From: an uncultured Sandaracinaceae bacterium
Lineage (GTDB): Bacteria; Myxococcota_A; Polyangia; Polyangiales; JAFGIB01
Length of the DNA stretch: 64,000 nt
Assembly (NCBI GenBank): GCA_964450715.1
Contig: CAYVFC010000003.1
Span: forward strand, 5,407-69,406
Direction of reading: 5' to 3'
The notes under the pieces were generated by a model. That model saw only the letters and a program-made list of their open reading frames with translations. It was not told where the DNA came from and searched no databases. A program made the translations under genes and the position numbers. Below are positions 1 through 60,643 of the stretch, one piece after another. The first letter of the stretch is position 1; the number at the start of each line of letters is the position of its first letter.

Positions 1-1426
1 CGAACAAAATAGGGCTCGGGGGGTAGCGGGGCGGCGCCAGGTGAAAGAGCAGCGGCAACAGCGCGTTCATCTTCCGGTATTGTTCCGGCCGCTCGCCGGG
101 AACGCCCCAGAGCAGGTTGTAGTGCACCTGGATACCGTGCTCCGCGCACCATTTTAAGGCCTGTATGTTTTGCAGCGCGGTGGTCCCCTTGCCCATCAGC
201 TTCAACAGCTCCGTGTTGAAGCTCTCGACACCGAACTGCACGTACCGCGCGCCGCTCAGCGCCAGATCTCGGATCTGGCTCTTCGGCAGGGTGGCGCGCA
301 GCTCGCAGATGAAGGTGAAGTCGCAGTCGAGCCTGCGTAGCGGAGCCAGCGCGTCCCGCAAGACCGCCCGCGGCAGCAGGGTGTCGGTCAGGTGAAAACG
401 CAGAACGCCGTGGGTCGAGGCGAGGGTCTCGATGTCCCGCTGGATCCTGCCCGCCGACTTGACCCGGTGGGGCAGGTTCTCCCGGTCCAGCCCGCAAAAC
501 CGGCAGCGGCGCTCGCCCTTTCCCCACCAGCAGCCGCGCGAGGTCTCGTAGGCCACTCCCTCCAGCGGTATCTCGCACCCCTGCTGGCGGCAGCGCCGCG
601 CTTGATCGAAGTAGTCCGAGTAGTCCGGAAGATAATGCTCGTCCAGCGAAAGGCTCGGCGTCCGGCCCGGGTTGACCACCAGCTGGCCGTCGCGCCGCCA
701 GCAGACGCCGGGTAAGGCGGAGAGGACCCGCCGCTCGCCGCGGCTCAAAGCGCGCACCAGCGGGGTGATCAGCTCCTCGCCCTCCCCCTGAACGCAGCAG
801 TCGATCCAGGGAAAGGCCATCATGTAGCCGGGGCCCATCTCGCCCGAGAAGCAGAATCCGCCGAAGACGACCGGCTTGTGCGGGTATAGCTCCTTGATGC
901 GCCGGGCCAGGGCCAGTGACGGTAGGGTCTGGTGAAAGGTGCAGGTGAAACCGATCAGATCGCTCTGGCGGACCTCGTCGCGAAGCGCCTCTTGCTCGAT
1001 GAAACGCGGCACCAGGCTATCGCGGATATGCAACAGCTCGTCCGCAAAGGCTTCGTCCAGCGGCTCCCCCGGCCGAGCGTTTCCGGCCCCGTACCCGCTC
1101 GGGGCCGCCGGGAAACCGTGACGGGTGCGGTCGAGCAGAAGCTCGAGCCTCTCGCGGTCGCTTTCGGGATGCGAATCGTCCCCGGGAAACAGGCCGCGGT
1201 TGAAGAGCCATTCGGAGACGAACCGCAGGGCGATGTCGTGGACGATGCGCTCGTAGGTCTGTACGCCCAGCAGCGAGGCGAAACGCAGGTTGGCGTGAGA
1301 GGCGGCCGCCGCCACGCCGTCGGCCCTCAGCCGCGCCCCGAGCAGCCCCAGCGGTAGCGAGGGAATGCCGATCGGCGCCCAGGGCATGGTGACGAGCAGC
1401 ACGGTTCCGGCGGGGGTCTGGTCCAA
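1..1426 (-). CDS. B12-binding-domain radical SAM enzyme, TIGR03975-like RiPP-maturation family (partial; C-terminus lies beyond the left edge)
   Basis: My own minus-strand translation reads ...VLLVTMPWAPIGIPSLPLGLLGARL..., then YETSRGCWWGKGERRCRFCGL (approx 487-530) and QFGVESFNTELLKLMGKG. The frame stays open to base 1, so it is absent from the ORF track. Start is TTG 1426 (GAGG 9-12 nt upstream) or GTG 1402. Confidence 0.8.
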   Translation of the reverse strand, partial: MDQTPAGTVLLVTMPWAPIGIPSLPLGLLGARLRADGVAAAASHANLRFASLLGVQTYERIVHDIALRFVSEWLFNRGLFPGDDSHPESDRERLELLLDRTRHGFPAAPSGYGAGNARPGEPLDEAFADELLHIRDSLVPRFIEQEALRDEVRQSDLIGFTCTFHQTLPSLALARRIKELYPHKPVVFGGFCFSGEMGPGYMMAFPWIDCCVQGEGEELITPLVRALSRGERRVLSALPGVCWRRDGQLVVNPGRTPSLSLDEHYLPDYSDYFDQARRCRQQGCEIPLEGVAYETSRGCWWGKGERRCRFCGLDRENLPHRVKSAGRIQRDIETLASTHGVLRFHLTDTLLPRAVLRDALAPLRRLDCDFTFICELRATLPKSQIRDLALSGARYVQFGVESFNTELLKLMGKGTTALQNIQALKWCAEHGIQVHYNLLWGVPGERPEQYRKMNALLPLLFHLAPPRYPPSPILF

Positions 1427-1586
1427 CGATGCGCGCCTCGTGCAAGACGGATCCGAGCTTCCTCGGGCCATCCAAGGTACCACGCTGAAACCTTGCCTGG
1501 CCAGCGTCGCGACGGGGCCGGATCGGCGGCTCTATCCGCGATGGAAAGCGCTTGACCCGGCCTCGAAGGCGGATAGAAGTATTCAA

Positions 1587-3656
1587 ATGGGAGTCGGGGT
1601 AGAGAGCTCGCACGTACTGATCTCCTCCAGGTGCGTAAACGATTGCGTTTTCTGCGCGGTAGCGAACAAGCGCAAGGCCGGGGCGCTGTCCAGCCGGGAG
1701 GAGATCCTCCGCTTCATGGAGAAGATGGCCACCGCCGGCGTCAAGCACCTGACCTTCTCCGGTGCCGGCGAGCCGACCCTGGACGAGCACTTCGAGGAAT
1801 ACCTCGACTATGCCCACCAGCTCGGCTTCCCGCGTATCCAGCTCTTCACCAACGGTCATGCCGTGTCGAGCGACAAGGTGCAGGCCTGGAAGCGATCCGG
1901 GCTCGGCCAGGTGCTGCTCTCGCTGCACGGCCTAGAGGGGGGGCACGACCGCAACGTGCGCCGACGAGGGTCGTTTAGAGAAGCCCTGCAGGCGCTCGAT
2001 ACCTTTCTGGCTGAGGGGCTTCAGGTCAACGTCAATACCTGCCTGACCCGCCATAACCTCGACGAGATAGCCGAGTTGTGCGCGCTGGTGGATCGCTATC
2101 CGGTCGGCCGCCACATGCTCTCCTTTCCCGAATGGCACGGCGCCTGTCTGGCCAATCCGGATCAGCTGCTCTGCTACCAGCAGGTCCGCGATCTCTGCGA
2201 TGACGTCGACTTTTTCGCCTTCCCCAGGGTCGTCTTCGACAACACGCCCTTCTGCATCGCCCGGCACCGGACACGCGAGCTCAGCGGGCTGGGACCGGTG
2301 GTGCTGCTGGACGCCGATCAGGAGCACACGCTGGCCATGGGCGGCGGCAATCGCTATCTCGGGGCGTGCGAGAGCCATTCCTGTCCGGTCAGGCACCTAT
2401 GCTGCGGATTCGACCCGGACTACATCGCGCATCACGGCTGGGGAGCCCTTCCCGGGCTGATCGAGGGCTTCTTCCGGCAGTTCGACTTCACCAGGTTGCG
2501 GCCGCTTCGTTCGGGCAGCGGCGGTTTCCGCCTCTCGCCGCCCCTGCGCCGCCCGGCGGCGCACCGAGCCGAGCCGGATACGGCCGGCGAGGGCATCTTC
2601 AACCTGATCCTCAAGCCGACCGCGCGCTGCAACGGTTCCTGCGCCTACTGCGCGGCCCGGAGCGAGGCCATTGCGTACGCAGATCTCTCGGTCGAGGATG
2701 CCGTCCGCATTTGCGGGACGGTGGCGCGAACCCTTCGCGAGCGGGGCGAGCGCCATCTGCAAATCGTCTGGCACGGCGGCGAGCCGCTTCTCATGGGTCG
2801 CGAGTTCTTCCGCGAGGTCTTGAGCTGGTGCCGGCAGAACCTCGAGGCGCCCCGCGTGAGCCACTCGGTGCAGTCCAACCTGCTTCTGCTGGACGAGCAG
2901 TGGATCGATCTCTTCGGTGCCTTCGACGTGCGGCTGAGCACCTCGGTCGAGCCGGTGGTCGAGGGGCTCCGGGTCTTCGCGGACGGTAGCGAGCAATTTC
3001 CGGGATGGTTCGAACGTTTCCGGCTGGCGATGCGCCGCGGCGTGAAGGTGGGGATCGTATATACCGTCACCGCTCACCACCTCGGACGGGAAGAGAAGAT
3101 CTACAACTACTTTCGCAACCTGCTCGCCACCTACCGCTCTTGCAGCGGGGTCCGTTTCAGTCCCATATACGCCGCCGGTCGCGCGGGCGACGGGAGCCGT
3201 GCGCGTTTGCTGCTCACCGACCAGCAGTACGCCACCTTTCTCCAGGCGATGCAGGCTCTTTGGAGCACGGCCGGGCGGCGGCTCGCTTTCGAGCCCTTCC
3301 GCAGCCTCGCCGGAGGCCACCGCAACTCGTGCGCGCTTTTACCCGACTGCAGCCGCCACTTCCTGGCCGTGGACGGCCAGGGCCGCGTCTCGCCCTGCGG
3401 GCGTTTTCTCGATTCCCGCGTCTTCATCGGTTCTATATACGGCGACGATTTCCCGACCCTGCAACAGAAGGCCCGCGAGCTGCTTTTCGAGCAGCGGGCG
3501 CTCCGCCTGGCCGAGACCGAGTGCCAGGGCTGCCCCGACCTGGAGCGCTGCCACGGCGGCTGTCCCTACCTGGCCTACCTGTACGGCGGCGACGCCAGCC
3601 GCAAGGAGCCCTTCTGCGCCGCCCACCGCGCGCTGTTCGCCTCAACCCGCGGGTAG
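1587..3656 (+). CDS. Tandem radical SAM / radical SAM-SPASM fusion protein (two catalytic cores in one polypeptide)
   Basis: ORF 1365..3656. Its 5' part overlaps the divergent gene, so ATG 1587 (MGVGVESSHVLISSRCVNDCVFC) is preferred. Core 1 has CVNDCVFC (1632-1655) plus FSGAGEPTL. Core 2 has CNGSCAYC (2628-2651) plus WHGGEPLL. The C-terminal SPASM block is CQGCPDLERCHGGCPY...C. Confidence 0.85.
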   Translation: MGVGVESSHVLISSRCVNDCVFCAVANKRKAGALSSREEILRFMEKMATAGVKHLTFSGAGEPTLDEHFEEYLDYAHQLGFPRIQLFTNGHAVSSDKVQAWKRSGLGQVLLSLHGLEGGHDRNVRRRGSFREALQALDTFLAEGLQVNVNTCLTRHNLDEIAELCALVDRYPVGRHMLSFPEWHGACLANPDQLLCYQQVRDLCDDVDFFAFPRVVFDNTPFCIARHRTRELSGLGPVVLLDADQEHTLAMGGGNRYLGACESHSCPVRHLCCGFDPDYIAHHGWGALPGLIEGFFRQFDFTRLRPLRSGSGGFRLSPPLRRPAAHRAEPDTAGEGIFNLILKPTARCNGSCAYCAARSEAIAYADLSVEDAVRICGTVARTLRERGERHLQIVWHGGEPLLMGREFFREVLSWCRQNLEAPRVSHSVQSNLLLLDEQWIDLFGAFDVRLSTSVEPVVEGLRVFADGSEQFPGWFERFRLAMRRGVKVGIVYTVTAHHLGREEKIYNYFRNLLATYRSCSGVRFSPIYAAGRAGDGSRARLLLTDQQYATFLQAMQALWSTAGRRLAFEPFRSLAGGHRNSCALLPDCSRHFLAVDGQGRVSPCGRFLDSRVFIGSIYGDDFPTLQQKARELLFEQRALRLAETECQGCPDLERCHGGCPYLAYLYGGDASRKEPFCAAHRALFASTRG

Positions 3657-3684
3657 GGGGGATACCATTTAGTTACCCCCCTAC
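3653..3684 (+). terminator. GC hairpin overlapping the stop codon (terminator-like, no U tract)
   Basis: Perfect 9-bp stem GTAGGGGGG (3653-3661) / CCCCCCTAC (3676-3684) with a 14-nt loop. The TAG stop at 3654-3656 sits inside the stem. Confidence 0.3.
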
Positions 3685-3757
3685 GCGAAAGACGACGGGA
3701 AGGGTTTTTACGAACCGCCTCTGGTCACCTACCGACGCGCCCGACTACCGGGCGCTG

Positions 3758-3990
3758 GCCGGGCGCGGGAAGGCCGGGACCGGGCGGCGGGGGCTACCCG
3801 CGTGCCAACCCGCCCAGCTATCGAGACCCCGGGTTGGCGCGCGGGTCGAGCGCGGGTTGCGTCCGGCAGGGCAAGAGCCCGTACGGCCGGACAATGCAAC
3901 CCGCGCGACCCCCGCCGCCCGGTGTCGGCCTTCCCGCGCCCCACCCGAAACGCAGGCAGCCCTGAAGCGATCAAGTCGTGCTAGTGTAGA
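3758..3990. repeat. Dispersed GC-rich intergenic repeat (family C), copy 1
   Basis: 3758-3816 aligns by eye at roughly 80 percent with 51411-51470. 3843-3869 is identical (27/27) to 60434-60460, and 3886-3897 is identical (12/12) to 60477-60488. The internal hairpin is CGCGGGTTGCGTCCGGC...GCCGGACaatGCAACCCGCG. Confidence 0.6.
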
Positions 3991-4907
3991 TGCCAACCCG
4001 GCGCCGCTTCGCGCCCTGCCACCAGACCATGCCCGACTTCCCCGAACAGATGATCGTGAGCGCGCCGCCGGGATTTCTCGAGCAGCAGAGCTGCCGGGTG
4101 ATCCTCCGGCTCTTCGACGTCGGGCGCGACGCCGCCCGGCTGGCCGCGCCCTACGGAAAGCGCATCAGCCACATCGACATGAACGGCAAGACGCTGGCCT
4201 CATTACCGAGGCTGGATCTGCTGGCCGAGCACCGCATCCGGCTCTTTGTCTCGGACGCGGATATTCCCTTGATACACCGGATCTCGAAGACCGCGGTCAA
4301 GCACCGTCTGGTGCTCTTCGTCCAACCGGACGCTGGCGCCGCCCGACGGATCAACCTGCTGAGCGAGTTCGATATCCCCATGCACATCGATCCCGGCGCG
4401 GGCCCCGCGGCGGAGGGCGTGCTGCCGCAACTTCTCGAGTACTACCTGCATAACCCGCTGCTGAACGCCTCCATCGCGCCCTTCAACGCGCTGATGAAGC
4501 ACGAGATCGAGGGCAAGGGGTATACCCTCTGGGATACGGAGTACGAAAAACCGGGTCGATACCTCTACCTATCCGCCGAGGGCGACATCTCGCTTTCGGG
4601 CAGGTTTCACCGAGCCGGGGTCGTCTTCGGCACCAGGTACGAGGCTTGGGAGCAAATCGCTGGGTCCGAGGCCTACCGGCGCCTGCTCGGATACCGGGAC
4701 GCCATGTTTGAGAAGGGCGAGCCCTGTGCCTTCTGCGCCGGGTTCCGCTTCTGTCAGGGCTATCTGAAAGCGGTGGACGCGGACGCCGACTGCGAGCAGT
4801 GGCAGCGGGTGTTCGAGGGAATCGGGCTGGCGGTCGACCAGGCCAGGGGTATCATAAGGGACGGTTATGGAAAGCGTGCCCGGGACCGCGGCGGGAAACC
4901 GGCGTAA
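3990..4907 (+). CDS. Hypothetical protein with only a SPASM/twitch-like Cys block (no radical-SAM CX3CX2C motif)
   Basis: ORF track, 305 aa. The only Cys cluster is C-terminal, CAFCAGFRFCQGY...DC (CX2CX5C). It overlaps the next rSAM gene by 41 nt. Start is uncertain: ATG 3990 lies at the end of the repeat, and ATG 4029 is the alternative. Confidence 0.6.
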   Translation: MPTRRRFAPCHQTMPDFPEQMIVSAPPGFLEQQSCRVILRLFDVGRDAARLAAPYGKRISHIDMNGKTLASLPRLDLLAEHRIRLFVSDADIPLIHRISKTAVKHRLVLFVQPDAGAARRINLLSEFDIPMHIDPGAGPAAEGVLPQLLEYYLHNPLLNASIAPFNALMKHEIEGKGYTLWDTEYEKPGRYLYLSAEGDISLSGRFHRAGVVFGTRYEAWEQIAGSEAYRRLLGYRDAMFEKGEPCAFCAGFRFCQGYLKAVDADADCEQWQRVFEGIGLAVDQARGIIRDGYGKRARDRGGKPA

Positions 4908-5976
4908 GAAGGTATTCTCCGTCGTCTTCATGCCCACGCTGGCGTGCAATTGCACCTGCGACTATTGCTTCCAGAACAAGACCGGCAGCCTGATGTCGGA
5001 CCAGGTGCTGCACCGCTTTCTCGACGGCCTGCTCGATCATTGCGGGCAGGAGAACATCCGTGGCCTCAAGATCTTCTGGCAGGGCGGCGACGTGCTTACC
5101 CTCTCCCCGGAACGGGCGAGCCAGATCCTGGGGATCTTCCGCGAGCGGACGGCCGGTAGCGGCGTTGCGGTCAACCACTATATACAGACCAACCTGCTGG
5201 GCTATCACCAAGGCTGGAAGCAGATCCTGCGGGACAACTTCAAGGACAGGATCAGCTCCTCGCTGGACTATCCCAACCTGTATCGCCAGGGGCCCGGCAT
5301 CGGCGTCGACGACTACTTCGACCGTTGGTTGCGGAAAAAGGAGCAGATCGAGAGCGACGGCTTTGGCGTGAGCGTGATCGCCCTGCCCAACGCGGAGACC
5401 CTCGAGCGAGGCGCCCAGGCCTTCTACGACTTCTACGGCAACACCGCCGGCATCAAGAGCCTGCAGGTCAACTTCCCCTTTCCCGGCATCGGCTCCGACT
5501 ACCCGCGAGAGCTGTCGCTCGAGAAGTACTCGGACTTCCTGCTAGATCTGTACCGGATCTGGAAAGAGGACGGCAGGCGTATCCACCTCAGGCCCTTTGT
5601 GACCATCGAGCGCAAGAAGAAGACGCCGGCGGCCAGCACCTTCTGTATCTGGTCCTATTGTTGCGCCGACGACATCCTGGCCGTGGCGCCGGCAGGAGAG
5701 GTGGCGCAGTGCGACTGCTGGATCCTCTGCCTGAACGAGTTCCAGTACGGTACGGTGCGCGACGCGAGCATGCGGCAGCTGCTGGACTCGCCCAACCGAC
5801 GGATCTTCTACCAGCGGGCGGAGAAGCTGGCGCTTCAGAGCGAGTGCGGGCAGTGCGTCTACTGGAGGCTCTGTCACGGCGGATGTCCGATCCGGGCCTA
5901 TCGCTTCTCGGGCGAGTTCTTTGCCAAGGACCATTTTTGCGCCGTTTACCGGGCCTTGTTTGACACGATTAGCTGA
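4867..5976 (+). CDS. Radical SAM/SPASM domain maturase
   Basis: ORF track, 369 aa. Motifs are FMPTLACNCTCDYC (CX3CX2C), FWQGGDVLTL, and the C-terminal SPASM block CGQCVYWRLCHGGCP...FC. Confidence 0.85.
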   Translation: MESVPGTAAGNRRKKVFSVVFMPTLACNCTCDYCFQNKTGSLMSDQVLHRFLDGLLDHCGQENIRGLKIFWQGGDVLTLSPERASQILGIFRERTAGSGVAVNHYIQTNLLGYHQGWKQILRDNFKDRISSSLDYPNLYRQGPGIGVDDYFDRWLRKKEQIESDGFGVSVIALPNAETLERGAQAFYDFYGNTAGIKSLQVNFPFPGIGSDYPRELSLEKYSDFLLDLYRIWKEDGRRIHLRPFVTIERKKKTPAASTFCIWSYCCADDILAVAPAGEVAQCDCWILCLNEFQYGTVRDASMRQLLDSPNRRIFYQRAEKLALQSECGQCVYWRLCHGGCPIRAYRFSGEFFAKDHFCAVYRALFDTIS

Positions 5977-6011
5977 CTTCGATAGTCTGGTTCAAATTCA
6001 AGAGGTGCTCC

Positions 6012-6869
6012 ATGGCTAAGAAGAGGGAACCTGAAGACGGGCGGAAGAACACCGTCGCGCGGGAGCCGGATCCCCGCGAAGCGCGCTGGCTCGATCGACG
6101 CAGCTTCCTGATGAGCGCGGGCAAGTACTCGGCTGCCGCGGCCGGTCTGCTCGCCGGCGCGCCGACCCTTTTCAGCGGCTGTTTTTTCGGCAAGAGCGAC
6201 GACGACCAGAGCGATGCCAAGCCGATCGAGCGCTACCAGCAGGAGGCGGTGCCGGCGATCATGGACGCGGACACCGGAGCCTCGCTGTCCGATGGCGAGG
6301 ATGCGGTCTACGAAATCTCCATCGAGCAAGCCGGCGACTACATGTTGACCGTCTCGTCCGAGAGCACCTTGCCGGAAGCAGACGCGGTACGGGCCTTTTT
6401 GCTCGAGGAAGACGGCGACGTGATCTGGTGGGAAGATATAAGGGCAGGTGCTACCTATACCGAAGGGTGGGAGGGCCTGCACTCGGGCATTTATTACCTG
6501 GTCATCGAGAGCCAGACCGACTCGGTCAAGGTCGTCTTCACCGTGACCGAGCAGAGCGGTAGCGGCGAGGGCGGCACGGGCGGTTCGGGCGAAGGGGGCA
6601 CGGGCGGCACCGGCGAGGGCGGTAGCGGCGAGGGAGGCACCGGCGAAGGCGGTAGCGGCGAGGGAGGTACCGGCGAAGGGGGCACGGGCGAGGGCGGCAG
6701 CGGCGAGTGGGACGACTACTCGGACTGGGTCGACAGCGCCTGGACCAACAACACCTGGTCCGACAGCTCGGGCTGGAAGGATGCGGGCAGCGGCACCTGG
6801 GTGGCCTACTCGGATTCCTGGTACGCCGGCGAGTGGGACGACGGCTGGCTGAACTACGGCTACTACTGA
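6012..6869 (+). CDS. Tat-signal lipoprotein with a PPC-like beta-sandwich, a (GEGG[ST]G)n linker and a Trp/Tyr/Asp-rich C-terminal tail
   Basis: ORF track, 285 aa, with AGAGG upstream. The twin-arginine motif is DRRSFLMSAG, followed by an h-region and lipobox LFSGC. The PPC-like pattern is GDYMLTVSS...GIYYLVIES. The last 54 residues contain 9 W, 6 Y and 9 D. Confidence 0.75.
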   Translation: MAKKREPEDGRKNTVAREPDPREARWLDRRSFLMSAGKYSAAAAGLLAGAPTLFSGCFFGKSDDDQSDAKPIERYQQEAVPAIMDADTGASLSDGEDAVYEISIEQAGDYMLTVSSESTLPEADAVRAFLLEEDGDVIWWEDIRAGATYTEGWEGLHSGIYYLVIESQTDSVKVVFTVTEQSGSGEGGTGGSGEGGTGGTGEGGSGEGGTGEGGSGEGGTGEGGTGEGGSGEWDDYSDWVDSAWTNNTWSDSSGWKDAGSGTWVAYSDSWYAGEWDDGWLNYGYY

Positions 6870-6878
6870 TCCCCCCTT

Positions 6879-6961
6879 GTCATTTCGACCGACCCTGTCA
6901 TTTCGACCGAAGGGAGAAATCTCTTTTTCGATAGAGATCTCTCACGTACGTTCGAGATGAC
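6879..6961. repeat. Palindromic dispersed repeat, family A (GTCATTTCGACCGAAGGGAGAAATCTC ... GAGATCTCTC..CG.TCGAGATGAC), full copy with a duplicated left end
   Basis: The left arm occurs twice (6879-, 6897-) and the right arm ends at 6961. The same element is found at 8562, 10714, 34679 (half copy) and 63805 (half copy). Confidence 0.85.
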
Positions 6962-8486
6962 GCGCGCCACGGGCGTGCTGGCCCTGTTCGGCGCCATCAT
7001 CGCCATGACGGCGCTGAACCGCGAGGTCGTCTCCATTTTACCTTTCGGGATCGAGGGCGACGGCCCGGGTTACATTTCCTATGCTGCCGCCCTCGGCGTG
7101 CACGGGTTCCGGGCGGTCGACCCCATGTGGCAGCCGGGCTACCCCTTTGCCCTGTGGCTGCTATCGCCGCTGTTCGCGGAGCCGTTCCGGGCCGGCGTGA
7201 TGATCTCCCTGGTCGCCGGCCTGGGCTTTTTGGCTCTCTGCTACCTGCTGGTGGCCGAGCGCTTCTCCGCCCCGCTCGGCCTGCTCTCGGTCGCCCTCAT
7301 CGCCAGCAGCGATCTGTTCGTCGTAAGCGCCTGCAGCGTCAACTCGGACATGACCTACGGCTGCCTGGCGCTGGGCAGCATCGCAGTGCTGTTTCGCGAG
7401 CGGATGCCCGCGGCCCGGCGCCTGGCCGTCGCCGGACTGCTGGCCGGCGCGGCCTATATGGTTCGACATCAGGCGCTTATGCTGCCGCTGCTCATGGCAC
7501 TCGTCTTGCCGACGCTGCCGCGCGGCGAGCGCCTGAAGGCCGGCCTATGGGGCGCGCTCGCCTTTTCGCTGGCTGCCCTTCCCGTGCTCGTCGCCTACGC
7601 TCTGCGTTTCGGCAATCCCCTCTACAATGAGCACTACCTCAACCTGGCCGGCGCGGCCTACTTCGACGGCAATCTGAACCTGTTCTTTCACGGGGGGCAC
7701 GCCGCGGCCTACGATTCGTGGGGCCAGGTACTGTCCGAGCGGCCGATGGCCATCGCGCGCTTTCTGGCGCTCAATTTTTGGCGGAGCTTCGCCGCGCTTC
7801 TTACCGAAACCCACGCGATACCCTTGCTCTGGGTCCCAGCCGTGGTGGGGATGGTGCGGATCAGGAGCGTCGACAGGCTCGTCCTGCTCGCCGCGCTGCT
7901 GCTCTGCCTTCTGTCCATGTCGACGGTTGCCACGCGGCCGCGCTACCTGCTGCTGGCGCTGCCGTTTTTCCTGCCCTTTGCGGTCGACGGCGCTGTTTGG
8001 GTTTATGGACGGGCGCGGGCGGCGATCGGGTGGAAGCTTCACGACGCCGTTCCGGCAGGTATCCTGCTGGCCGTTTTCGCGCTGCTGGCGGCGCGCGCCG
8101 GCCGGGAGGTGCTACGGGAAGAGGATCCGGTCTTCCGCGCGGCCGGGCTTTTACTCCGCGAGGCGACCGATCCGGGTGACCGAGCGCCGTTTCTCTCCAT
8201 CTACCCCTTTCACGTGGGGTACTACGCCGAAAGGCGCGGCGTGTTCCTGCTCTCGCCCCGTTTCAACCGGCCGCCCTATTCGCTCGAGGCCGCGAACCGG
8301 GCGCTGCGCGCGACCATCGAGAGAAACGGCGCCGGATACCTACTCTATTACAGGTTTCCCGGCTTCAACCGGCCCGCTTTTCCCCACCTCGCCTCGGCGG
8401 GCAGAGCCCCGCCCTTCCTCGAGCCGCTGGCCGAGCGATCCGATCCGCTGCTGGTCCTCTATCGCTACCGGCCGGAGCTTCGCTGA
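6957..8486 (+). CDS. Polytopic membrane protein, GT-C fold glycosyltransferase (PMT_2/ArnT-like, GT39/83-type)
   Basis: ORF track, 509 aa, with many hydrophobic segments. The first-loop pattern GDGPGYISYAAAL...QPGYPFALWLL resembles the D-x-x-x-Y...hPPl motif of ArnT/PMT_2 enzymes. The ATG lies inside the right end of the family A repeat. Confidence 0.55.
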   Translation: MTRATGVLALFGAIIAMTALNREVVSILPFGIEGDGPGYISYAAALGVHGFRAVDPMWQPGYPFALWLLSPLFAEPFRAGVMISLVAGLGFLALCYLLVAERFSAPLGLLSVALIASSDLFVVSACSVNSDMTYGCLALGSIAVLFRERMPAARRLAVAGLLAGAAYMVRHQALMLPLLMALVLPTLPRGERLKAGLWGALAFSLAALPVLVAYALRFGNPLYNEHYLNLAGAAYFDGNLNLFFHGGHAAAYDSWGQVLSERPMAIARFLALNFWRSFAALLTETHAIPLLWVPAVVGMVRIRSVDRLVLLAALLLCLLSMSTVATRPRYLLLALPFFLPFAVDGAVWVYGRARAAIGWKLHDAVPAGILLAVFALLAARAGREVLREEDPVFRAAGLLLREATDPGDRAPFLSIYPFHVGYYAERRGVFLLSPRFNRPPYSLEAANRALRATIERNGAGYLLYYRFPGFNRPAFPHLASAGRAPPFLEPLAERSDPLLVLYRYRPELR

Positions 8487-8561
8487 GCTTCTACGCGCTT
8501 GACAGCACTATTCCCGTCAATTCGTCCGCTCCCGCTGCCATTTTGCCCGCCCCCCCCTTTT

Positions 8562-8650
8562 GTCATTTCGACCGAAGGGAGAAATCTCGTTTGTGTAACA
8601 GAGATCTCTCACCTCCGTTCGAGATGACAACGATATTCGTTCGAGATGAC
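8562..8650. repeat. Palindromic dispersed repeat, family A, full copy
   Basis: Left arm 8562-8588, right arm 8601-8628, plus an extra partial right end at 8636-8650. Confidence 0.85.
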
Positions 8651-8656
8651 ACTTCG

Positions 8657-9547
8657 CTACGGGCACTCGGCGTGCATCTCGTCGTCGCAGGTCGGCTCGG
8701 GCTCGCCGCTGAAGTCGCAGGCATAGGTCTCGCCCTCGGAGCTGAAGGTCGCTTCGGCTGCGACGACTTTCCCGTTGGAAGTGTGCTCGCAAGGGCACGA
8801 GACCCCGATGGCTATGTACCCGAATCCCGAGCTCTTCCCGCCTTCCATATGGTAGAGGATGCACTCGTTTTCGGCGAACCAGGACGGAAACGTGGCGTCG
8901 TTCGCCTCACAGATCGTCTCGCTGGAGGAGCCGCACAGATCACCGGGATCGTCGGCGCAGGCCACGAACTGGTTCGCGCCGCAGTGCTCGGTGCCGTAGC
9001 AGTCGGTGAAGCAGCACCAGCCGTCCGTGCACTCGAGGTAATCATAGGTCGGTGCGCTTCCGCCCGAGCCGCCGTCGCCGCCGCTACCGCCGGTTCCGGC
9101 GGTTCCGGCCGTTCCCGCGGTACCGCCGGTTCCGGCGGTAGAGCCGCCCTCGCCGCCCTCGCTGCCGCCGGTTCCGGCAGCCGATCCGCCCTCGCCGCTG
9201 GTTCCGCCGCCTCCGCCGGACTCGCCGCCGCTTCCGCCGCTTCCGCCGGACTCGCCGCCGCTTCCGCCGCTTCCGCCGGACTCGCCGCCGGTGCCCGCGG
9301 CGGTTCCGCCGGAACCGCCTGTGCCGGATCCGGAACCGCTGCTGTCGACCACGCACTTGTCGGACAGGCAGACCAGCCCCGTGTCGCAGGTTCCACCCGA
9401 CGTACAGTCACAGCCCTCGGACCCAACATCGCAGTCGTTCGCCTCTTCCTCGCAGGCCGTCACCGCAACCGTGCCCAGCATCACCGCTCCCAGTAAAACG
9501 GCTCGCAAAATCGCGGATTCAACGCTCGTTCCCCTCGTCCTCATCAT
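8657..9547 (-). CDS. Secreted lipoprotein with a Gly/Ser-rich linker and Cys-rich N- and C-terminal modules
   Basis: ORF 8657..9691. The internal start MMRTRG at 9547 is preceded by GGGAGG. The signal and lipobox read LGTVAVTAC. The linker is (GGESGGSGGS)n. The C-terminal domain has many Cys. Confidence 0.7.
   Translation of the reverse strand: MMRTRGTSVESAILRAVLLGAVMLGTVAVTACEEEANDCDVGSEGCDCTSGGTCDTGLVCLSDKCVVDSSGSGSGTGGSGGTAAGTGGESGGSGGSGGESGGSGGSGGESGGGGGTSGEGGSAAGTGGSEGGEGGSTAGTGGTAGTAGTAGTGGSGGDGGSGGSAPTYDYLECTDGWCCFTDCYGTEHCGANQFVACADDPGDLCGSSSETICEANDATFPSWFAENECILYHMEGGKSSGFGYIAIGVSCPCEHTSNGKVVAAEATFSSEGETYACDFSGEPEPTCDDEMHAECP
9213..9292. repeat. Perfect 30-bp tandem repeat (about 2.7 units) inside the lipoprotein linker
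   Basis: CCGCCGGACTCGCCGCCGCTTCCGCCGCTT is repeated head to tail. It encodes SGGSGGSGGE units on the minus strand. Confidence 0.8.
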
Positions 9548-51123: not shown

Positions 51124-51604
51124 GGGAAGTGGCAAGCCCTCACGATTCTACACATCTTCAAGGGTACCGGATGAAAGGCGGTCCTACCCCGGTGATCGCG
51201 TCCAAGCAGGAACTCGCCGGTAGAATCGATGCAGGAGCCGGGCGGGTATAGCCCGTCGACGCTCCGGCCAGCGTTACCTCGGAGGGGATCGCCACTGCTT
51301 TTCTGCGAACAAAAAGCCGTTCGGCAGGGTATTGCACTCTTTTTCAGTCGCGCGCCGGGCCATACCCGCCCGGCTCCGCAGGCCGCACTTCTCGGATAGC
51401 AGCGCGACGCCGGCCTGGCGCGGACGGTCCGGGGCCGGCCGGCGGGGGCGTCCCGCGTGCCAACCGCCCCCGAATAGTGGGGCTATTTCGAGGAGGAACG
51501 ACGCAGCAGATGCGCCCGCCCCGCAAGCGAGGCGACGGGAGTTGCATTTTGAGCCGGGAACTAACTAGATGTGTAGAATGATTAGGGCAAGCCCTTCCCC
51601 TACG
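51124..51604. repeat. About 480-bp non-coding element bounded by about 33-bp imperfect inverted repeats (MITE-like)
   Basis: 51124-51156 (GGGAAGTGGCAAGCCCTCACGATTCTACACAT) compared with the reverse complement of 51569-51604 (...GGGAAGGGCTTGCCCTAATCATTCTACACAT). The interior shares about 60 bp with 3758-3816. It contains no credible ORF. Confidence 0.35.
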
Positions 51605-60433: not shown

Positions 60434-60488
60434 GGGTCGAGCGCGGGTTGCGTCCGGCAGAGCGAGAGTTTCCGAAGCCGGACAATGC
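60434..60488. repeat. Family C repeat core copy
   Basis: GGGTCGAGCGCGGGTTGCGTCCGGCAG is 27/27 identical to 3843-3869. GCCGGACAATGC is identical to 3886-3897. Confidence 0.8.
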
Positions 60489-60643
60489 GACTCTCGCGTC
60501 CACCGAGAGTTCTGTACACGTCCCCGCCGGCAGTAGACCAGCGCCGTAAGGGGGTCGAACTCGATAAGTCGATGATTGCCGCGTGAAGACGGCGGCAAGA
60601 CGTACGATGACTGACAGCTCTCTCGACTTCTCGAGTCCGACCC

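Follow-up and report, generated by a model that had tools for sequence, protein, structure and literature searches.

A radical SAM gene cluster of an uncultured Sandaracinaceae bacterium with a protein-sized, lipobox-bearing candidate substrate

INTRODUCTION

The cross-link motifs of darobactin and dynobactin are of the W-N-W, W-S-K and W-x-N types. Among B12-dependent radical S-adenosylmethionine enzymes (B12-rSAMs), PoyB and PoyC are proteusin-type C-methyltransferases, and members of the family TIGR03975 usually act on short NHLP/Nif11-type precursors, as in proteusin systems. Here we analyze a cluster of radical S-adenosylmethionine (rSAM) genes at the left end of a 64,000-nt stretch of DNA (the window) from an uncultured Sandaracinaceae bacterium (assembly GCA_964450715.1, contig CAYVFC010000003.1, positions 5,407 to 69,406), together with the 285-aa protein encoded after the last of these genes. 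Darobactin-type enzymes cross-link Trp to residue i+2 (PMC9055067), and aromatic-X-X triplets with a link from the aromatic residue to C-beta are the defining motif of triceptides (PMC11499958). The DAG-RiPPs, a family of peptides made by the ribosome and modified after translation (RiPPs), include precursors larger than 30 kDa that are modified at the C-terminus (PMC13056109).

The product of the cluster is most likely a membrane-anchored protein whose Trp-rich tail is stapled into many small rings by the rSAM enzymes before export. The original prediction, made from this DNA alone, had named the 285-aa protein, with its twin-arginine (RR) motif and lipobox, as the best candidate substrate of these enzymes. 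Synteny, conservation within the protein, motif statistics and a larger homologous family all support that proposal, and we regard it as highly probable.

RESULTS

The 285-aa protein and its tail

Gene identities rest on the open reading frames (ORFs) of the window and on Pfam/NCBIfam profile scans of their translations; positions are given in Table 1. The ORF that follows the last rSAM gene begins 35 nt after it and has the RR motif, lipobox and Trp/Tyr tail that had been predicted. The scans gave no family match for its product. Five close homologues were found among 5.8 billion clustered proteins, and a profile search of 1.84 billion representatives added about 10 with the same full-length architecture, its other matches being to the middle domain alone.

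Conservation is concentrated at the two ends. In the five closest homologues an invariant block, W26-x-DRR-x-FLM-x-AGK-x-SAAAAGL-x-AG, is followed by Cys57; the RR pair, the GKYSAAAAGL segment and Cys57 are unchanged. The tail is the most conserved segment of all (NTWSDSSGWKDAGSGTWVAxSDxWYxGEWDDGWLNYGYY), the middle of the protein is 35-58% identical among the closest homologues, and the Gly-rich linker is missing or short in most relatives.

The N-terminus has the parts of a lipoprotein signal. DRRSFL at residues 28-33 fits a twin-arginine motif of the S/T-R-R-x-F-L-K type, the h-region is weakly hydrophobic (mean Kyte-Doolittle 1.03), and the lipobox LAGAPTLFSGC, of the PS51257 type (PROSITE), ends at Cys57, the sole Cys of the protein. 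The same type of lipobox pattern is present in 10 of 13 protein-sized relatives. Motif and signal architecture point to the twin-arginine translocation (Tat) pathway. AlphaFold gave a confident fold for residues 71-183 alone (predicted local distance difference test, pLDDT, >90), and the signal region, linker and tail are predicted to be disordered. This domain matches 1nqj and 5sv5 with template modeling scores (TM) of ~0.7 and is PPC- or collagen-binding-domain-like, a type typical of secreted proteins. It is replaced by a different domain at two of the homologous loci described below (L008 and L016; loci carry L numbers) and is absent at a third (L014).

The 54-aa tail contains 9 Trp, 6 Tyr, 9 Asp and 3 Asn, arranged as nine aromatic-X-Asp/Asn triplets (WDD, YSD, WVD, WTN, WSD, WKD, YSD, WDD and WLN) before the terminal GYY. 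Composition-preserving shuffles lead one to expect 3.25 such triplets (P ~1e-4). All nine tails tested, from the window and eight relatives, are enriched, with P ranging from 0.003 down to 0 of 10,000 shuffles.

Recurrence of the gene order in relatives

Co-conservation of the 285-aa protein with the enzymes, which the original prediction led one to look for, was found. The order p305-like gene, rSAM-SPASM gene, 285-like gene (p305 being the product of the 305-codon ORF ahead of the last rSAM gene) recurs on all relative contigs with enough flank: L005, L006, the P0005 contig and L007. The three closest relatives with readable flank have an rSAM start that overlaps the p305-like gene and a 285-like gene 36-44 nt downstream of the rSAM gene. 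On the P0008 contig the visible upstream part is a 62-aa fragment of a gene 42 nt upstream.

Two loci with more distant homologues of the 369-aa rSAM-SPASM enzyme, L007 (55% identity) and L008 (45%), preserve the association. Two TIGR03975-like B12-rSAMs, a fusion enzyme, a p305 homologue, an rSAM-SPASM enzyme and a 247-aa protein are encoded co-linearly in L007; the last combines RK-NFF..GKYS and the lipobox VFSGC with a beta-sandwich and the tail ...WSDSSW...GTWYAHSDTWYAGEWSNGWQNFAYY. L008 has the rSAM gene, then a gene for a 242-aa protein, then B12-rSAM and fusion genes; the 242-aa protein has TRRQML..GNYS, an AxA site in place of the lipobox, a middle domain of another type and the tail DWCDYGDWTDYSDWTDD...WSNWSL. 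Upstream of the L007 fusion gene (1-5002) the two B12-rSAM genes are accompanied by a Peptidase_U32 gene and an unannotated gene for a 281-aa protein; O2-independent hydroxylases are known among U32-family proteins.

Searching species-representative genomes with the rSAM alignment yielded 80 loci, and 84 homologous loci enter the counts below; genome and metagenome contig scans with the alignment of the 285-aa family found nothing. The closest of these loci, L010-L016 and L023, are in metagenome-assembled genomes labeled Deltaproteobacteria, Polyangiaceae, Planctomycetota, Fermentibacteria, Hydrogenedentota and Rectinemataceae. Each except L015, which has no recognizable precursor, encodes a 146-308-aa RR/lipobox protein beside the rSAM enzyme, directly downstream and, in L023, on the opposite strand. 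These proteins end in W/Y-[SDNT]-[DN] repeats, often ...WGNWM[EQ]SW. The same loci also encode the fusion, a p305 homologue and a B12-type rSAM, except that L023 has no B12-type enzyme and the L011 contig ends after the precursor. The set of rSAM, tail protein, fusion, p305 and, in all but L023, a B12-type rSAM is seen in L007, L008, L010, L012/13, L014, L016 and L023, spanning several phyla. About 20 of the precursors are protein-sized, most with a lipobox, and a B12-type rSAM and a fusion enzyme are also encoded at the eight of these loci that have enough flank.

One called protein of the representative library, P0143 (834 aa), runs from a fusion-type rSAM/rSAM-SPASM enzyme into a precursor with RREFL, lipobox, beta-sandwich and W/Y-S-D tail. 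Whether it is a genuine enzyme-substrate fusion or the outcome of a frameshift, it places fusion enzyme and precursor side by side.

A wider family with short precursors

At more distant loci (rSAM 34-41% identical) the gene for a p305 homologue stands between a short ORF, which comes first, and the rSAM gene. The short ORF, of 65-135 aa, reads ...[ED]n-L-L-[DS]-RR-[DE]-F-L-x-G-L-G-K-W-S-K-I-V-I-G-A-A-..., followed by AxA and then GGGGW-[IVA]-N-[RG] repeats. Among the leaders of 57 loci the RR pair is kept in 56; position +10 is aromatic and position +11 is Ser in all 57. Two screens combined place a neighboring precursor with a [DS]RR[DE]FLxGLGK[WY]S leader and Trp-X-Asn/Asp repeats at no fewer than 58 of the 84 rSAM loci, a lower bound, many of the remaining loci having truncated flanks.

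By these comparisons the core of the system consists of a leader-bearing Trp-X-Asn/Asp precursor, a pseudo-SPASM partner and an rSAM-SPASM enzyme. The window represents a rarer branch, with a lipobox-bearing protein-sized precursor, an added fusion enzyme and B12-rSAM, and Tyr-Ser-Asp beside the Trp triplets.

The short-precursor family (RRDFLxGLGKWSK, AxA, GGGGW-X-N-R) occurs in L017-L089, for example at L020 8829-9068, L024 8864-9097 and L030 8862-9077, in Chromatiaceae, Geobacter, Syntrophobacter, Acidobacteria and other groups, each time adjoining a p305-like gene and an rSAM-SPASM gene. At 41 such loci (L019-L038 and others) a signal-peptide protein of ~150 aa, which looks NTF2/SnoaL-like in sequence, is encoded before the precursor gene, ~2.1 kb upstream of the rSAM gene. 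Downstream of the rSAM gene of L086 (11103-12644) lies an ORF of ~513 aa full of P-W-S-N and W-N-N repeats, another and larger protein-sized candidate substrate.

The modifying enzymes

The 369-aa enzyme belongs to the SPASM family TIGR04085 (47.9 bits, cutoff 27); C27, C31, C34 and the SPASM Cys are invariant in the family alignment, and 701 homologues were found at E < 1e-10. Its best full-length scores are with DynA (107.7 bits), anSME (96.8), TIGR04083 (93.8), DarE (77.6), DarW (71.1), AmcB (70.9) and GrrM/OscB (56). Set against the curated cutoffs, AmcB reaches 70.9 of 425, GrrM/OscB 56 of 310, FxsB 44.4 of 370, YhhB 40 of 445 and XyeB 34.9 of 450. The nearest solved structures are anSME (E 1.3e-27) and ChlB. 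We take this enzyme as a candidate cyclophane synthase for the tail encoded by the next gene.

The fusion enzyme carries a second SPASM domain. Its N-terminal rSAM domain has CX3CX2C and conserved Cys at 152, 223, 261, 266 and 272, and is nearest to NirJ, MftC, PqqE and HxsC. The C-terminal half gives end-to-end alignments to DynA (145.8 bits) and to anSME (140.3 bits). For both SPASM domains the best NCBIfam matches are to the cyclophane synthases DynA, DarE/DarW, AmcB, GrrM, YhhB, XyeB and FxsB and to anSME. The same fusion architecture is found in L007, L010, L012/13, L014, L016 and L023.

The p305 ORF matches no Pfam or NCBIfam family. In its family one Trp and four Cys (C-x2-C-x5-C-x12-C) are invariant, and CX3CX2C is missing. 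The last 120 residues can be aligned with the SPASM region of the neighboring enzyme family (hhalign 91.8%, E 7.6e-7), there is a weak alignment to anSME, and 3 of 22 members touch TIGR04085. By these profiles p305 looks like an rSAM-SPASM paralogue that has lost catalysis and may retain a single auxiliary cluster. A word-indexed search had returned 3 homologues, falsely suggesting rarity; blastp on the loci placed the family in most of them, with a homologue directly upstream of the rSAM gene in 63 (blastp) to 77 (clustering) of the 84. This strict pairing with a conserved leader suggests that p305 might be a leader-binding or scaffold subunit. Its AlphaFold2 model, poor overall (mean pLDDT 48.7), has alternating strand-helix units at the N-terminus. 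A second case of decay from rSAM to pseudo-rSAM in the system is offered by the fusions of L012 (7124-9247) and L016 (17009-19078, minus strand), whose C-terminal rSAM halves have neither CX3CX2C nor most of the SPASM Cys.

The window holds only a fragment of the minus-strand enzyme (404.7 bits on TIGR03975, cutoff 281.85). Exact-sequence look-ups recovered the public-assembly contig (L002), which continues 5.1 kb past the left window edge, and the complete gene there (4641-6560) encodes 639 aa scoring 503.1 bits over model positions 1-606 of 606. By this match the enzyme is assigned as a full-length member of TIGR03975, the RiPP maturation radical SAM C-methyltransferases. The Pfam B12-binding score is below cutoff (23.8 versus 32.1 bits) and Radical_SAM is above it (55.2 bits); the Pfam SPASM score is likewise below cutoff (17.8 bits), and it is the NCBIfam models that carry the B12 and SPASM assignments. 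The cluster motif is noncanonical, C-x8-C-x2-C instead of CX3CX2C (C-x7-C-x2-C in L007), and the last ~60 aa resemble in sequence a winged-helix, RiPP-recognition-element-like (RRE-like) leader-binding module. Co-linearity with the remaining operon genes in L007 links the B12 enzyme with the operon.

Neither the rSAM clade nor p305 nor the precursors are covered by an NCBIfam or Pfam model.

Search for another precursor

The enzymes might instead act on an unannotated small peptide or on a protein encoded elsewhere, the 285-aa protein being a binding, immunity or export accessory. The usual substrates of TIGR03975 enzymes are short, and most known SPASM maturases act on peptides of <100 aa, which speaks for such an arrangement. 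The gene neighborhood speaks against it. The original prediction had reported no credible short precursor ORF, and none was found in the gaps or in the extended flank: no short or NHLP/Nif11-type precursor gene is present in ~5 kb to the left of the window, beside the B12-rSAM, or in the divergent spacer. The B12-rSAM stop codon is 13 nt from a convergent gene for a TSP3-repeat protein, and farther left on L002 come genes for an AbiEii-like nucleotidyltransferase, accompanied by a small partner ORF, for a Zn peptidase and for a Sushi/EGF protein; we rejected this flank as a source of precursor. Gaps between genes in the relatives are 11-44 nt and hold no conserved small ORF, and the tail protein itself has the leader and the repeat motif of the short precursors at homologous loci. 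We consider it very improbable that the lipoprotein is not the substrate.

The one large gap, between the fusion and p305 genes, is a 372-nt nested GC-rich palindrome with a folding energy of -171 kcal/mol over its core. It had been described as a dispersed repeat. Pieces of it do recur at both places named (51408-51469 and 60434-60505; 62-74 nt, ~82% identity, 27 nt exact), and the repetition is only partial, involving different sub-hairpins. The orthologous junction has no palindrome in relatives, measuring 22 nt in L005 and 21 nt in L007. No Rfam match was found for the element, and the ORFs inside it match no family; a precursor hidden there was rejected on these grounds. The element is an insertion, MITE/REP-like in appearance (miniature inverted-repeat transposable element or repetitive extragenic palindrome).

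The AbiEii/DUF6036-like nucleotidyltransferase gene of L002 (3350-4005) and the 53-68-aa ORF downstream of it appear to form a toxin-antitoxin-like pair and are unrelated to the cluster.

Proposed mechanism

We infer the chemistry, the division of labor among the enzymes, the use of Tat, the lipidation and the role of p305 from the comparative pattern. The 285-aa protein would be a protein-sized precursor with the disordered Trp/Tyr tail as its core region. In the cytoplasm the 369-aa enzyme, with p305, would abstract hydrogen from the third residue of the aromatic-X-Asp/Asn triplets, and the third-residue carbon would be linked to the aromatic ring, giving three-residue cyclophanes in series, of the kind found in triceptides, darobactin and dynobactin. 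The fusion enzyme would contribute another set of cross-links or a radical modification of a different kind; relatives with the fusion have Tyr-Ser-Asp as well as Trp triplets. The B12-rSAM would C-methylate the tail. The [DS]RR[DE]FLxxxGK[YW]S region would double as the leader recognized by the maturases and as the twin-arginine signal. The modified protein, a folded beta-sandwich with a rigid cross-linked tail, would then be exported by Tat, a pathway that takes folded or rigid cargo, its signal cut at the lipobox and Cys57 lipidated, tethering the product to a membrane. The absence of a protease or ABC exporter, the secreted-type middle domain and a glycosyltransferase neighbor kept in L006 fit periplasm-bound export without dedicated machinery. 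As a whole, cytoplasmic cross-linking and C-methylation followed by Tat export and lipidation seems to us the probable course, held with less assurance than the identity of the substrate.

Several observations weigh against this mechanism, and they bear on different steps. All matches to characterized cyclophane synthases are far below their curated cutoffs, anSME scoring comparably, so the chemistry could differ: ether bridges like those of daropeptides, links of longer span between Trp and Trp or Trp and Tyr, other C-C topology, epimerization, or beta-hydroxylation of Asp/Asn. Four rSAM cores exceed the needs of simple triceptide formation, and DarE, a single enzyme, makes both ether and C-C links (PMC9055067). 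On the other side, the strict three-residue register with Asp/Asn at position 3 is the signature of an aromatic-to-C-beta link (PMC11499958), and the register is kept in the short Gly-rich relatives, where nothing else is conserved. We judge different chemistry on the same substrate to be unlikely. The p305 model is too poor to back any role for that protein, and the palindromic insertion ahead of its gene could disturb operon expression here. The methylation step is not uniformly conserved, the B12-rSAMs of L008, L010, L012, L014 and L016 being of another B12-rSAM family (20-24% identity to that of the window).

Other adverse observations concern export. The leader is more conserved than ordinary signal peptides, extending beyond the Tat consensus (GK[YW]S is invariant in 57 loci), and could be a recognition sequence alone. 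The RR pair is lost in two protein-sized relatives, L007 (RK) and L023 (none), and the lipobox is absent from the L008 and L014 proteins, its Cys being missing in L008. Pfam TAT_signal and TIGR01409 gave no match at E up to 10 for five leaders and the whole proteins, weak evidence given that short Tat profiles are easily lost to HMMER filters. These points would fit an RR N-terminus that merely resembles a Tat signal and is read by the maturases, the product being exported by Sec, otherwise released or retained in the cell, with neither Tat export nor lipidation. Against this, all parts of a signal peptide are present (basic n-region with RR, hydrophobic h-region, AxA or lipobox), the window clade keeps the lipobox Cys without exception, the middle domain is one typical of secreted proteins, and a cross-linked tail with a folded domain would suit Tat better than Sec. 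Such an export logic strikes us as quite unlikely.

The proposed mechanism might be extended, and here we are doubtful while regarding the idea as possible: the loci could represent a large undescribed class of rSAM cyclophane products leaving the cell by Tat, RR[DE]FLxGLGK[WY]S being read by the maturases and then by Tat. The p305 family would hold the leader until cross-linking is complete, much as the proofreading chaperones TorD, DmsD and NapD serve Tat cofactor enzymes, and the protein-sized branch would carry a lipid-anchored, possibly glycosylated, rigid and protease-resistant multi-cyclophane tail.

Gene layout and neighbors

Every gene was found where the original prediction had put it, and its count of four rSAM cores plus one degenerate relative agrees with the family scans and the profile alignment. 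The overlap of 41 nt between p305 and the third rSAM-SPASM gene was likewise seen (4867 versus 4907). Details of the layout need adjustment. The divergent spacer, given as 160-185 bp, is 160 nt with the called start and 106 nt with the alternative ATG. The 305-aa gene does keep its C-terminal CX2CX5C, and its start is more likely 4029, where the public gene call also begins, 13 codons later; this gives 292 aa, as in homologues.

Table 1. Features of the left end of the window
Feature	Position	Strand	Remarks or basis
B12-rSAM (TIGR03975)	1..1426, alternative ATG at 1480	-	Truncated at window edge; full protein 639 aa
Divergent spacer	1427..1586		No room for a precursor gene; public-contig gene starts correspond to window 1426 and 1587
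Fusion enzyme, rSAM + rSAM-SPASM, 689 aa	1587..3656, ORF open from 1365 (763 aa)	+	Two Radical_SAM stretches
GC-rich nested palindromic insertion, noncoding	3657..4028, core hairpin 3741-3960		Folding energy, junction comparison
p305, putative degenerate rSAM-SPASM paralogue	4029..4907 (ORF also from 3990)	+	Cys pattern, profile alignment to SPASM region
rSAM-SPASM maturase, 369 aa, candidate cyclophane synthase	4867..5976	+	TIGR04085
285-aa protein, residues 1-57: DRRSFL, GKYS, Ala/Gly-rich h-region, lipobox LFSG/C57	6012..6182	+	Motifs, alignment
285-aa protein, residues 71-183: PPC/collagen-binding-domain-like beta-sandwich	6222..6560	+	AlphaFold model, fold comparison
285-aa protein, linker: Gly/Glu/Ser/Thr-rich, GEGGTG repeats, predicted disordered	6561..6704	+	Sequence, model
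285-aa protein, residues 232-285 and stop: Trp/Tyr tail, proposed core region	6705..6869	+	Conservation, triplet enrichment
PMT_2 (GT-C, ArnT/PMT-like) integral-membrane glycosyltransferase	6957..8486	+	34.6 bits versus cutoff 26.1

The PMT_2 enzyme, an uncertain member of the system, may be a periplasmic tailoring enzyme that decorates the exported product, perhaps through O-glycosylation at the Ser/Thr-rich linker. A 65%-identical PMT_2 fragment follows the orthologous tail-protein gene in L006 (2152-2550), the closest relative with flank, and the gene is absent from L007. Beyond 8.5 kb the family scans identify a Ser/Thr kinase, a PEGA protein and, on the opposite strand, a beta-propeller protein, all unrelated to the cluster. 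The scans of the window genes found no protease or ABC exporter in the cluster, and window positions 1-9000 gave no credible Rfam match.

DISCUSSION

If the proposed mechanism is right, rSAM cyclophane chemistry would reach beyond short peptides to entire proteins that are exported and lipid-anchored. For the Tat pathway it would mean a new class of cargo, modified beforehand and cross-linked rather than cofactor-loaded, and the RiPP-lipoprotein route would not be confined to MNIO enzymes. A testable core of three parts would also be defined, namely the leader-bearing precursor, its pseudo-SPASM partner and the rSAM-SPASM enzyme; no fewer than 84 genomes from many phyla have this core, for which there is no curated model. 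The conserved leader motif offers an easy way to mine such systems, and the multi-cyclophane tail is a candidate scaffold for display, rigid and resistant to proteases.

Comparison with known systems

The original prediction drew its analogy with anSME and QhpD, rSAM-SPASM enzymes whose protein substrates are modified in the cytoplasm and exported afterwards. That general logic is shared, and triceptide- and darobactin-type cyclophane formation is the better analogy. For anSME (TIGR03942) the scores are 96.8 bits (369-aa enzyme) and 140.3 bits (fusion) versus a cutoff of 349.45, and the 285-aa protein has no C/S-x-P/A-x-R sulfatase motif; a sulfatase-type reading was rejected for these reasons. 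For QhpD (TIGR03906) the score is 25.9 bits versus 453. The gamma subunit of quinohemoprotein amine dehydrogenase (QHNDH) is Cys-rich, whereas the substrate here has no Cys beyond Cys57 that could form thioethers, and a QHNDH-like reading was rejected as well.

Proteusin-type B12-rSAMs such as PoyB and PoyC resemble the window enzyme, a full-length TIGR03975 member at 503 bits. Unlike in those systems, there is no NHLP/Nif11 precursor nearby, and the B12-rSAM is paired with SPASM enzymes and a signal-bearing protein.

The MNIO systems supply the closest parallels for export. Bufferins and oxazolins likewise replace the classical leader by a signal peptide and yield a periplasmic product (PMC11626156, PMC12452194); unlike the present system, they have Sec signals, modified Cys and bound copper, and no rSAM enzyme. 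The DAG-RiPPs, made by ChrH-like MNIO enzymes and described in 2026, share a precursor with a lipoprotein signal, modification in the cytoplasm and then the lipoprotein pathway (PMC13056109). The original prediction was aware of no characterized system with the present combination. That statement calls for updating: RiPP-lipoprotein hybrids and precursors >30 kDa were shown in that work, but they are made by MNIO enzymes, with other chemistry, and neither radical SAM nor Tat is mentioned (PMC13056109). Family scans show no MNIO gene in the window cluster, all of whose modifying enzymes are radical SAM. DAG-RiPP signals are of the Sec type, cleaved by signal peptidase I or II (SPI/SPII), whereas here a twin-arginine motif precedes the lipobox. 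Our literature search found nothing tying triceptides, cyclophanes or radical SAM to Tat, signal peptides, lipoproteins or the periplasm, with subscription-journal triceptide papers lying outside that search.

For chemistry the nearest systems are the cyclophane peptides. The darobactin and dynobactin enzymes (DarE, DynA and DarW) are the top-scoring characterized families, DynA reaching 107.7 bits with the 369-aa enzyme and 145.8 bits with the fusion, but these scores are far below the cutoffs of 450-650 bits. Darobactin and dynobactin are antibiotics of 7-10 residues freed from short precursors, whereas the ~54-residue multi-motif tail would stay on its lipoprotein. Triceptides (made by XyeB, GrrM/OscB, YhhB, HaaB, HtkB and ChlB) share an rSAM-SPASM maturase and repeated aromatic-X-X triplets (PMC11499958), and the short relatives of the window family, with their GGGGW-X-N repeats, resemble GrrA. 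No curated model of enzymes that form three-residue cyclophanes (3-CyFEs) is reached here, however (GrrM/OscB 56-87 bits versus 310), and the GrrA/OscA1 model TIGR04260 does not match the 285-aa protein (E = 7.9 for a short Gly-rich relative). The precursor also differs, having 285 aa with a signal-like leader, a lipobox and a folded domain, as do the enzymes, which comprise a degenerate-SPASM partner that is obligatory, another two rSAM cores and a B12-rSAM; the cluster has neither a leader protease nor an exporter. In the literature searched, no protein-sized lipoprotein counterpart of cyclophane peptides has been described for the rSAM enzyme class, while triceptide chemistry and the lipoprotein route are each known. 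The system lies outside every curated family, yet by its sequences it appears to resemble a triceptide/darobactin-type pathway.

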